This document shows positions 15,001 to 18,000 of a stretch of DNA of 64,000 nt, piece after piece (within the stretch, counting starts at the first letter, position 1; every line of letters begins with the position of its first letter). The position numbers were made by a program. Source of the DNA: Escherichia coli (GTDB lineage: Bacteria; Pseudomonadota; Gammaproteobacteria; Enterobacterales; Enterobacteriaceae); NCBI RefSeq assembly GCF_050920415.1, contig NZ_CP169309.1. One strand, written 5' to 3'.

Positions 15001-18000
15001 CATTCCTTTCTTTGTTGCCTCGCTGATTCTCGATGGTTCCGCAACCATGATTCACAGTCTGGTTACTATCGATATGACCACCATCTTGTCTCTGATGTAT
15101 CTGGCATTTGTGGCGACAATCGTTGGTTATGGGATCTGGGGGACGTTACTGGGACGCTATGAAACCTGGCGGGTTGCACCGCTATCGTTACTGGTGCCTG
15201 TAGTTGGACTGGCAAGTGCGGCACTATTGCTGGATGAACGCTTAACGGGTCTGCAATTTTTCGGTGCGGTGCTCATTATGACCGGGCTGTATATCAATGT
15301 ATTTGGCTTGCGGTGGCGTAAAGCCGTGAAAGTGAGAGGCTAAAAAGCCCCGAGATGTCGGGGCCAGAATAAACTATATAGCGTGTTGATTATAATAGGG
15401 CACGCCAAGCGCATCCGATTTATCACTGCCTGTGCTCATGTGGTTAAAATCAAATGGTGATTGTTCCGGTGATGGGGGAACAACCACCACATTGCCACAG
15501 GAAGTAACAACCGGCTGCGTGGTTTGTTCCGCAAAGCTCTGCGCAGAGAAGAGAATAAGCGCGGTTACCATTGCGGATAAAAGTGGTTTCATGATTGCCT
15601 CAGTGACGTTGTCACGTTATCAACTAGCTGTTGTAATGATTTAATGGATGTAAAAAGCGCGATTCGCCCTGCATATTGGTCATCCGGTATTTATGTGGCG
15701 GAACATCAAAGTAATTTTTGAAGGTTCGGGTCAGAGTTTGTTGCGACTCGAAGCCATATCGTTCTGCCAGATAGAGTATCGGCTCGTTACTTTCCTTCAG
15801 CTTTTGCGCGATTTCCGTCATCTTACGGCTGCGGATGTATTGGCCTAATGAATGACCGGTTTCTTTTTTAAACATCCGTTGCAGGTGCCATTTGGAGTAA
15901 CCCGAACGCTCTGACACTTTCTCCAGTGACAGTGGCGATTCCAGGTTGTCCTCGATCCAGTCCAAAATGCTATGAATGGTAATAGCGTCAGTATTGCGTC
16001 TGGACATCGTCATACCTCTTTTTTTGTTTACGGCAGGACTTTCTTAAGCAAATGCTCAAGTGTTGCCACTTCGTCCGCCGTCAGGTTTTTTGTTAATTCT
16101 TGATGCAGGTCCTGGCCAACTAATTGATGGCATTGTTTACATATTGCCGCGCCGCTGGTGGTAAGTTTTACCAGTACGCCGCGCTTATCATTCGGGTTCG
16201 GCAACCTTTCCACCCAGCCTTTACAAACCAGGCGATCCAGCATACGGGTCAGCGCTCCCAGGTCGACCGACAACACTTTTTTCAGTTCAACCGGAGTAAT
16301 ACACGACGCGCAGCGGATAGAGCAGAGCACCTTAAACTGTGCCGCGGTAATATCCAGCGGAGACAGATACTCGTTAAGCAGGCGATCTTTCTTCTGATTA
16401 ACCATATGGATTAAGCGACCCAATGGAATAATTTCATTGAACAGATCGCTGGTACTTTTCACATTAGTTGCCCTGGCAAGTAATTAGTTGCAGGGGATAA
16501 TATTGCCCAGGCAAGTATAAGTCAAATGAATGAATTGACCGATGCCACGTTTTGCTAAATCGGTTCAAGTTTTGGTCAATGCGATTCAAGGCTAGCTAAA
16601 GAGTGACACTTTATCGTTGTTTACCCCTTATACTTTTCGCTGATAACCCAGATACACAGGATAACAACCACTAATGTTAGATTTGTTTAAAGCAATAGGC
16701 CTGGGGCTGGTGGTGTTACTGCCGTTAGCTAACCCATTAACAACTGTCGCGTTATTTCTTGGTCTGGCAGGCAACATGAACAGTGCCGAACGTAATCGTC
16801 AGTCGTTGATGGCCTCGGTGTACGTCTTTGCCATCATGATGGTGGCGTATTACGCCGGGCAACTGGTGATGGATACATTTGGCATTTCGATTCCCGGTCT
16901 GCGAATTGCAGGCGGCTTAATCGTCGCGTTTATCGGTTTTCGGATGCTCTTTCCGCAACAGAAAGCGATTGATTCACCGGAAGCGAAAAGCAAGTCGGAA
17001 GAGCTGGAAGATGAACCCAGCGCCAATATTGCCTTTGTACCTCTGGCAATGCCTAGTACCGCCGGTCCGGGAACCATTGCGATGATTATTAGCTCGGCGT
17101 CCACTGTGCGTCAGAGTTCAACCTTCGCTGATTGGGTACTGATGGCTGCGCCGCCGCTGATCTTTTTCCTGGTGGCGGTTATTTTGTGGGGAAGTCTACG
17201 CAGCTCTGGCGCAATTATGCGGCTGGTGGGCAAGGGGGGAATTGAAGCGATCTCCCGTCTGATGGGATTCCTGCTGGTATGTATGGGTGTGCAGTTTATT
17301 ATTAACGGCATCCTGGAAATCATTAAAACGTATCATTAAAAAAGGCCCGAATGGGCCTTTCAACTATTGCGTCTGTTCTTCGAGTGTCACTGGCCAGCGG
17401 CGAAAAATGATGATTGACCATATTAACGCGGCAAAAGCAGGCACCGCGCCCACATAACCAATCATCGACATTGACCAGTGCAGACTGACCTGATTACCTA
17501 CCAACGCGCCAGCGCCGATTCCAATATTAAATATTCCCGAGAATAGCGCCATCGCGACGTCGGTGGCATCTGGTGCCAGCGCCAGCACTTTAACCTGCAT
17601 ACCAAGCCCGATGATCATCATCGCGATCCCCCAGAAAATACTCAGCACCCCGAGGTGTATTTCACTGTTCGCCGCAGTTAGCAGTAATGCAAGGCAGACC
17701 AGCAACAGCGCAATCGCCGTACTCACCAACGTAGACGCATACTGATTGCCCAGTTTACCGAAAATCACGCTGCCAATAATGCCTGCACCACCGAGTAATA
17801 ACAGTAATGCCGTGGCAAAGTTGGCGCTGAATCCCGCAATGTTTTGCACAAAAGGCTCGATATAGCTGTATGCCGTGTAATGGGCGGTGACAACCACCAC
17901 AGTTAACAAATAAATGCTCATCAATGCCGGGCGGCGGAACAATAGCGGAAGGCTTTTCAACGACCCTGAATGCTCGCTGGGGAGTAAGGGAAGTAACTTA

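Follow-up and report, generated by a model that had tools for sequence, protein, structure and literature searches.

A four-substitution marR allele in an Escherichia strain with cryptic clade I affinity: phylogenetic inheritance as the probable origin

The mar locus and its differences from K-12

The sequence considered here, referred to below as the window, is a stretch of 64,000 nucleotides from contig NZ_CP169309.1, which is deposited as Escherichia coli. According to its open reading frames and the RefSeq annotation of a near-identical record, it holds marC on the forward strand followed by marR, marA, and marB on the reverse strand, with eamA and ydeA as flanking genes (Table 1). The divergent orientation of marC beside marR confirms that this is the canonical mar locus. 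The marR product matched the NCBIfam equivalog model for MarR (NF008565) over residues 1-144 and scored 316.9 bits, far above the cutoff of 240; the recorded annotation of this exact protein also includes Pfam PF01047. It showed 97% identity over its full length to the solved structures 3VOE (E = 3.6e-91, 4 differences), 5H3R, and 1JGS, and it also aligned end to end with the E. coli MarR structures 3VOD, 4JBA, and 3VB2.

Table 1. Features of the mar locus in the window and the four marR codons that encode residues different from K-12
Feature	Position	Strand	Description
marB	15374..15592	-	Intact
marA	15624..16007	-	Intact; protein WP_000091199.1, common to other clade I and E. coli strains
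marR CDS	16028..16462	-	GTG start, 144 aa, intact; supported by ORF list, equivalog model, and structure matches
marR codon 137	16052..16054	-	CAT (His), K-12 TAT (Tyr); Y137H
marR codon 109	16136..16138	-	AAA (Lys), K-12 GAA (Glu); E109K
marR codon 103	16154..16156	-	AGC (Ser), K-12 GGC (Gly); G103S
marR codon 53	16304..16306	-	TCG (Ser), K-12 GCG (Ala); A53S
marC-marR intergenic region with marO	16463..16673	-	Pairwise DNA alignment with K-12
marC	16674..17339	+	Divergently transcribed neighbour

As the K-12 reference we used MG1655 marR (NC_000913.3, 1619120-1619554) and its product MarR (b1530, NP_416047.4). The two proteins were identical at 140 of 144 residues, and at the DNA level the genes were separated by 10 substitutions, of which 4 are nonsynonymous and the others fall in 6 synonymous codons. 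These differences were directly observed, so chance is not an issue for them. The initial annotation of this DNA had anticipated a MarR that departs from K-12 at several positions, and the alignment agrees with it closely: Ser for Gly at 103 and His for Tyr at 137 lie exactly where they had been placed, the probable change near residue 53 is at 53 itself, and the one suspected near residue 108 is real, although it is located one position further on, at 109. The marR differences amount to ordinary allelic variation that RefSeq already contains, the identical protein being entered there under the name MarR as WP_000843425.1.

Comparison with K-12 marR revealed no stop, frameshift, or deletion in the window gene. 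The six cysteines of K-12 MarR (47, 51, 54, 80, 108, and 111) were all retained. An AlphaFold2 model with a mean pLDDT of 83 showed six helices and a wing of two strands. All four substitutions lie outside residues 57-100, the DNA-binding winged helix made up of helices 3-4 and the wing. Upstream of the marR start, ~110 bp were identical to K-12 (alignment columns 130-240) and four substitutions were found further upstream; the identical stretch comprises the part of marO with the promoter, both operator sites for MarR, and the marbox. The two alleles thus share a length of 144 residues, the GTG start, the arrangement of marC, marO, and marR-marA-marB, the proximal marO, and the cysteines, whereas they differ in the four residues, the 6 synonymous changes, and a single A that K-12 lacks in the spacer between marR and marA.

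The remainder of the operon varied in its similarity to K-12. The marA coding region differed by one nucleotide. The marB gene carried dozens of substitutions in 219 nt, with many amino-acid changes, which is far above the level in marR or marA. The additional A lies in the marR-marA spacer (~16014-16027), just upstream of the marA Shine-Dalgarno sequence, where a run of seven A residues is found instead of the six in K-12. Gene offsets suggest that the longer spacer is also present in Nissle 1917 and PCN033, and that 2013C-4282 has the K-12 length.

Ser103 and His137 are the majority state of E. coli

To determine the distribution of each substitution, we searched 5,426 complete E. coli genomes with short segments centred on the respective site and counted an exact match as the window state. 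The Ser103 segment was found in at least 4,138 of 5,403 complete-genome records; for the His137 segment, the figure was at least 4,178 of 5,414. Ser103 and His137 are therefore the majority state in E. coli (~77%), and the Gly103 and Tyr137 of K-12 are the minority. This is in line with surveys in which G103S/Y137H is the most frequent MarR "substitution" (PMC7082582). No association of the pair with levofloxacin resistance or fluoroquinolone MIC was found, and fully susceptible isolates carry both (PMC4317672); repressor activity was likewise stated to be unaffected (PMC11753663). The view of the initial annotation that these two changes are common polymorphisms unlinked to resistance is thus upheld by the genome counts and by both of these reports. 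Some genome reports nevertheless still attribute efflux up-regulation to G103S/Y137H (PMC8976530, PMC11504656). This calls for caution, because the pair is being reported as marR "resistance mutations" although it is the majority state of the species, with K-12 as the outlier.

For the conservation of individual positions we considered 80 full-length MarR representatives with 69-92% identity from Citrobacter, Kluyvera, Kosakonia, Klebsiella, Atlantibacter, Buttiauxella, and others. Because these orthologues are closely related, the profile HMM emissions at the four columns were dominated by the prior, and raw column counts were used instead. Column 103 was highly variable among the 80 representatives (E, D, S, H, Q, N, G, and others; rank 112 of 144), and column 137 was the most variable of all (Y, H, L, Q, F, and others; rank 144 of 144). 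In the AlphaFold2 model, residue 103 is at the N-terminus of helix 102-115 and residue 137 lies in the C-terminal helix 129-142. The common E. coli allele with these two residues (WP_000843419.1, found in Nissle 1917 and PCN033) has Ser103 and His137 as in the window, and the window allele differs from it by the additional A53S and E109K. In the public protein collection, the K-12 protein, the G103S/Y137H protein, and the A53S/G103S/Y137H protein were each present on at least 1,000 contigs.

Ser53 and the ancestry of the window

In contrast to the majority pair, Ser53 was rare, with 18 carriers among 5,413 complete-genome records. These were exactly the 18 genomes that are closest to the window over the 22 kb around mar (positions 6000-28000), where they showed 98.0-100% identity and all other genomes at most 96.4%. 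The closest of them, E. coli MFDS1022581 (NZ_CP169399.1), which comes from animal-source food in South Korea, was 100.0% identical to the window over this region. Seventeen further complete genomes followed at 98.0-98.5%, set apart from the other ~5,400. Among the 17 were EC42405 and 2013C-4282, two of the completely sequenced strains of Escherichia cryptic clade I (C-I) listed by Okuno et al. (2023, PMC10100065), who reported average nucleotide identities of >98.3% among C-I strains and >95.9% for C-I against E. coli sensu stricto. The two-step identity pattern around mar matches these published values, and from the 22 kb we infer that the window comes from a C-I strain that is labelled plain E. 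coli in the databases. Such an origin would explain the whole substitution pattern.

Direct comparison showed that the substitutions are nested: Nissle 1917 and PCN033 carry G103S/Y137H, 2013C-4282 carries A53S in addition, and MFDS1022581 and the window carry E109K on top of these. The C-I allele A53S/G103S/Y137H (WP_000843424.1), which is shared by 2013C-4282, EC42405, and 2020CK-00188, is separated from the window allele by one nucleotide and one residue, having Glu109 where the window has Lys109. All of the 17 nearest complete genomes carry it, and it accounts for the at least 1,000 contigs given above for this protein. Among the 80 orthologue representatives, column 53 was hypervariable (V, G, A, E, T, S, K, Q, and I; rank 141 of 144), and in the AlphaFold2 model residue 53 directly follows helix 40-52. 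Because the position is hypervariable, A53S is best read as a clade marker, and it does mark cryptic clade I, with which it co-segregates perfectly among complete genomes. The two positions that had been left for checking in the initial annotation are thereby accounted for, A53S as a marker of C-I and E109K, as detailed below, as a marker of one of its sublineages. Neither marR A53S nor marR E109K was found in full-text searches of the literature, whose matches were all unrelated. The practical value of A53S is that of a simple marker for a group that is often mistaken for ordinary E. coli.

Distribution and evolutionary context of Lys109

Lys109 was encoded in a single one of 5,360 complete-genome records, that of MFDS1022581. 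The exact window protein was nonetheless present on 86 contigs, with records from NCBI, UniRef, and Logan, and 149 index blocks contained it. Another assembly, GCA_048660685.1, was identical to the window at 6,435 of 6,435 nt. These numbers, together with the identity over 6.4 kb, show that the allele persists in a lineage. We can therefore conclude that E109K is a clonally inherited allele of a C-I sublineage, and that it is neither a private variant nor a sequencing error.

The change was also observed in the absence of A53S, on 14 contigs with a G103S/Y137H background and on 1 contig with a K-12 background. Among four of these contigs, the flanks differed at 76-78 sites in 3.2 kb between E. 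coli backgrounds that are clearly distinct, of which there were at least two, and at 7-15 sites between three slightly different ones. Since the flanks differ in this way, E109K has arisen repeatedly, on at least three other backgrounds. This recurrence is weak evidence of selection, because the 90% MarR cluster holds 3,030 distinct sequences, and the repeated occurrence of any given transition is expected in a collection of that size.

At the level of the protein, E109K reverses the charge of a conserved Glu: column 109 contained Glu in 78 of the 80 orthologue representatives and Gln in the other 2, whereas Lys was seen in none of them. Conservation of this degree is common in MarR, as 80 of 144 columns were at least 90% conserved in a 44-sequence alignment and column 109 ranked only 68th of 144, so that a substitution at a conserved column is not unusual. 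Residue 109 is in the middle of helix 102-115 in the AlphaFold2 model, and the hydrophobic periodicity of this helix (G104, I107/C108, C111, L114/V115) suggests that it lies on the polar face of what is helix 5.

To place E109K in the context of its own branch, we compared the 21 genes that could be compared in full within the 22-kb region with those of 2020CK-00188, the nearest C-I genome that does not carry E109K (marB, with 218 of 219 nt aligned, was left out). This yielded 40 amino-acid differences and 219 synonymous codon differences. Divergence was patchy, with none in ydfZ, rspR, and ydfG, and 38-49 differences each in sad, uxaB, and ydeE; marA had 0 differences and marR had 1, namely E109K. 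At the average rate of the region, ~0.9 nonsynonymous changes would be expected in 435 nt, so the single one in marR is about average. No selection can be inferred from it. It is the only one of the four changes with any plausible functional consequence.

Function of the allele and alternative explanations

Altogether, the data are best explained by a MarR repressor that is functional and wild-type and that would owe its four differences from K-12 to phylogeny and not to drug selection, a reading to which we assign a probability of roughly 85%. Under this reading, Ser103 and His137 would be the inherited majority pair of the species, Ser53 would be the state of cryptic clade I, and Lys109 would have arisen within one C-I sublineage and then have been inherited clonally. 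The allele retains all that K-12-like function requires, namely an intact winged-helix domain with its residues in helices 3-4 and the wing, Cys80, and K-12-identical operators. The protein would thus be predicted to bind marO as a dimer and to repress marRAB, and its release would be expected to follow binding of salicylate-type ligands or oxidation of Cys80.

The hallmarks of a derepressing mar-type allele fit the window allele poorly. Disruption of the reading frame or the operator was not found, as the gene is full-length and its proximal marO does not differ from that of K-12; nor was the occurrence sporadic and independent of phylogeny, given the majority pair, the association of A53S with C-I, and the clonality of E109K, yet E109K does recur elsewhere. 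Drug-selected marR mutations, by comparison, occur sporadically and include frameshifts and deletions as well as L33R, A70T, and G15S, three selected derepressing changes with a measured rise in MIC (PMC11753663), whereas the changes in the window are inherited with the lineage and leave the reading frame intact. A likeness exists all the same, since E109K is also a single, non-conservative change at a conserved residue. We also considered a partial loss of function, in which E109K would weaken MarR stability, dimer geometry, or DNA binding and would thereby lead to more MarA and more AcrAB-TolC. The near-invariance of Glu109 among orthologues is consistent with such an effect, as are the position of the charge reversal in the middle of helix 5, which joins the wing to the dimerisation region, and the fact that E109K is the sole substitution in marR-marA relative to the nearest C-I genome while the flanking genes show mostly synonymous changes. 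The independent occurrences on the G103S/Y137H background (at least two to three backgrounds) and on the K-12 background point the same way, but recurrence of any single transition is to be expected among so many cluster members, and more than half of all MarR columns are at least 90% conserved. Moreover, the allele is clonal on at least 86 contigs rather than sporadic, the helix periodicity would place residue 109 on the polar face, and E109K is absent from the marR papers found, in which the selected mutations lie elsewhere. On balance, we consider derepression by E109K unlikely. If it did occur, the C-I sublineage would gain constitutive low-level multidrug and stress tolerance, and a weakened repression would amount to a lineage-fixed change of the efflux set-point in food-chain Escherichia.

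Another way in which the allele could depart from K-12 function concerns cysteine chemistry. A53S and E109K fall within the only two CxxC motifs of MarR (CASC, residues 51-54, and CKQC, residues 108-111), orthologues retain Cys108 and Cys111 at a level of at least 90%, and a Lys beside Cys108 might lower the thiol pKa, so that redox or metal sensing would be altered. However, only Cys80 of the six cysteines is reported to sense oxidants, and MarR with the other five replaced by Ser still works as an experimental model (PMC12017873); a role of Cys80 in oxidant sensing was also described elsewhere (PMC11211675). Because only Cys80 is reported to sense oxidants, the CxxC location of the two changes is probably coincidental. 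Position 53 is furthermore hypervariable, and two hits within 4 of the 144 positions could arise by coincidence, which makes a retuned cysteine chemistry very improbable. The broader proposition that E109K is a naturally fixed, partially derepressing change, or that it acts together with A53S through the CxxC motifs on redox sensing, is in our judgement unlikely as well; were it true, the sublineage, which occurs in food animals and humans, would have a Mar regulon whose set-point is constitutively raised, with no drug-selected mutation involved. We give practically no weight to an origin of the differences in errors of sequencing or assembly, or in recombination that imported the gene from another species. 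Nothing but the rarity of E109K among complete genomes speaks for it, independent assemblies contain the identical gene (the complete genome of MFDS1022581 and GCA_048660685.1) as well as on the many contigs noted above, and the flanks share the C-I affinity of marR itself. Inheritance of a functional repressor allele along the C-I lineage thus remains the preferred reading.

Relation to MFDS1022581 and other loci in the window

The near-identity to MFDS1022581 raised the possibility that the window is from that very isolate, which was rejected. Over 62.7 kb, we observed 5 SNPs (at 23225, 27742, 48451, 48460, and 51286) and 3 single-base indels (at 745, 52064, and 62575), and MFDS1022581 carries a ~1.33-kb IS2 copy at window position ~46,730 (about 46728-46733) that the window lacks. 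These differences identify the window strain as a sister isolate of the same clone. The indel at 62575, a single A, affects ydeO (61962-62723), which is an intact 253-aa open reading frame in the window and is annotated as frameshifted in MFDS1022581; it is possibly a homopolymer error in the MFDS1022581 record.

Two genes end slightly earlier than their counterparts in 2020CK-00188, namely ptrR (19895-20776) at codon 292 and yneG (23255-23617) at codon 120, and the RefSeq coding sequences are correspondingly shorter. The first part of the window (1-4574) contains, by the annotation of the near-identical record, a remnant of a prophage tail-fibre gene, a gene for tail-fibre assembly, and a ydfJ truncated at its N-terminus, and looks like a decayed prophage junction. 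Further downstream, positions 37983-45188 hold a 5.4-kb autotransporter gene of the ECSE_1600 family followed by hipBA, and beyond hipBA there is an island with an ankyrin-repeat protein and fragments of insertion sequences and HTH genes, followed by a fimbrial operon of the ydeQRS type.
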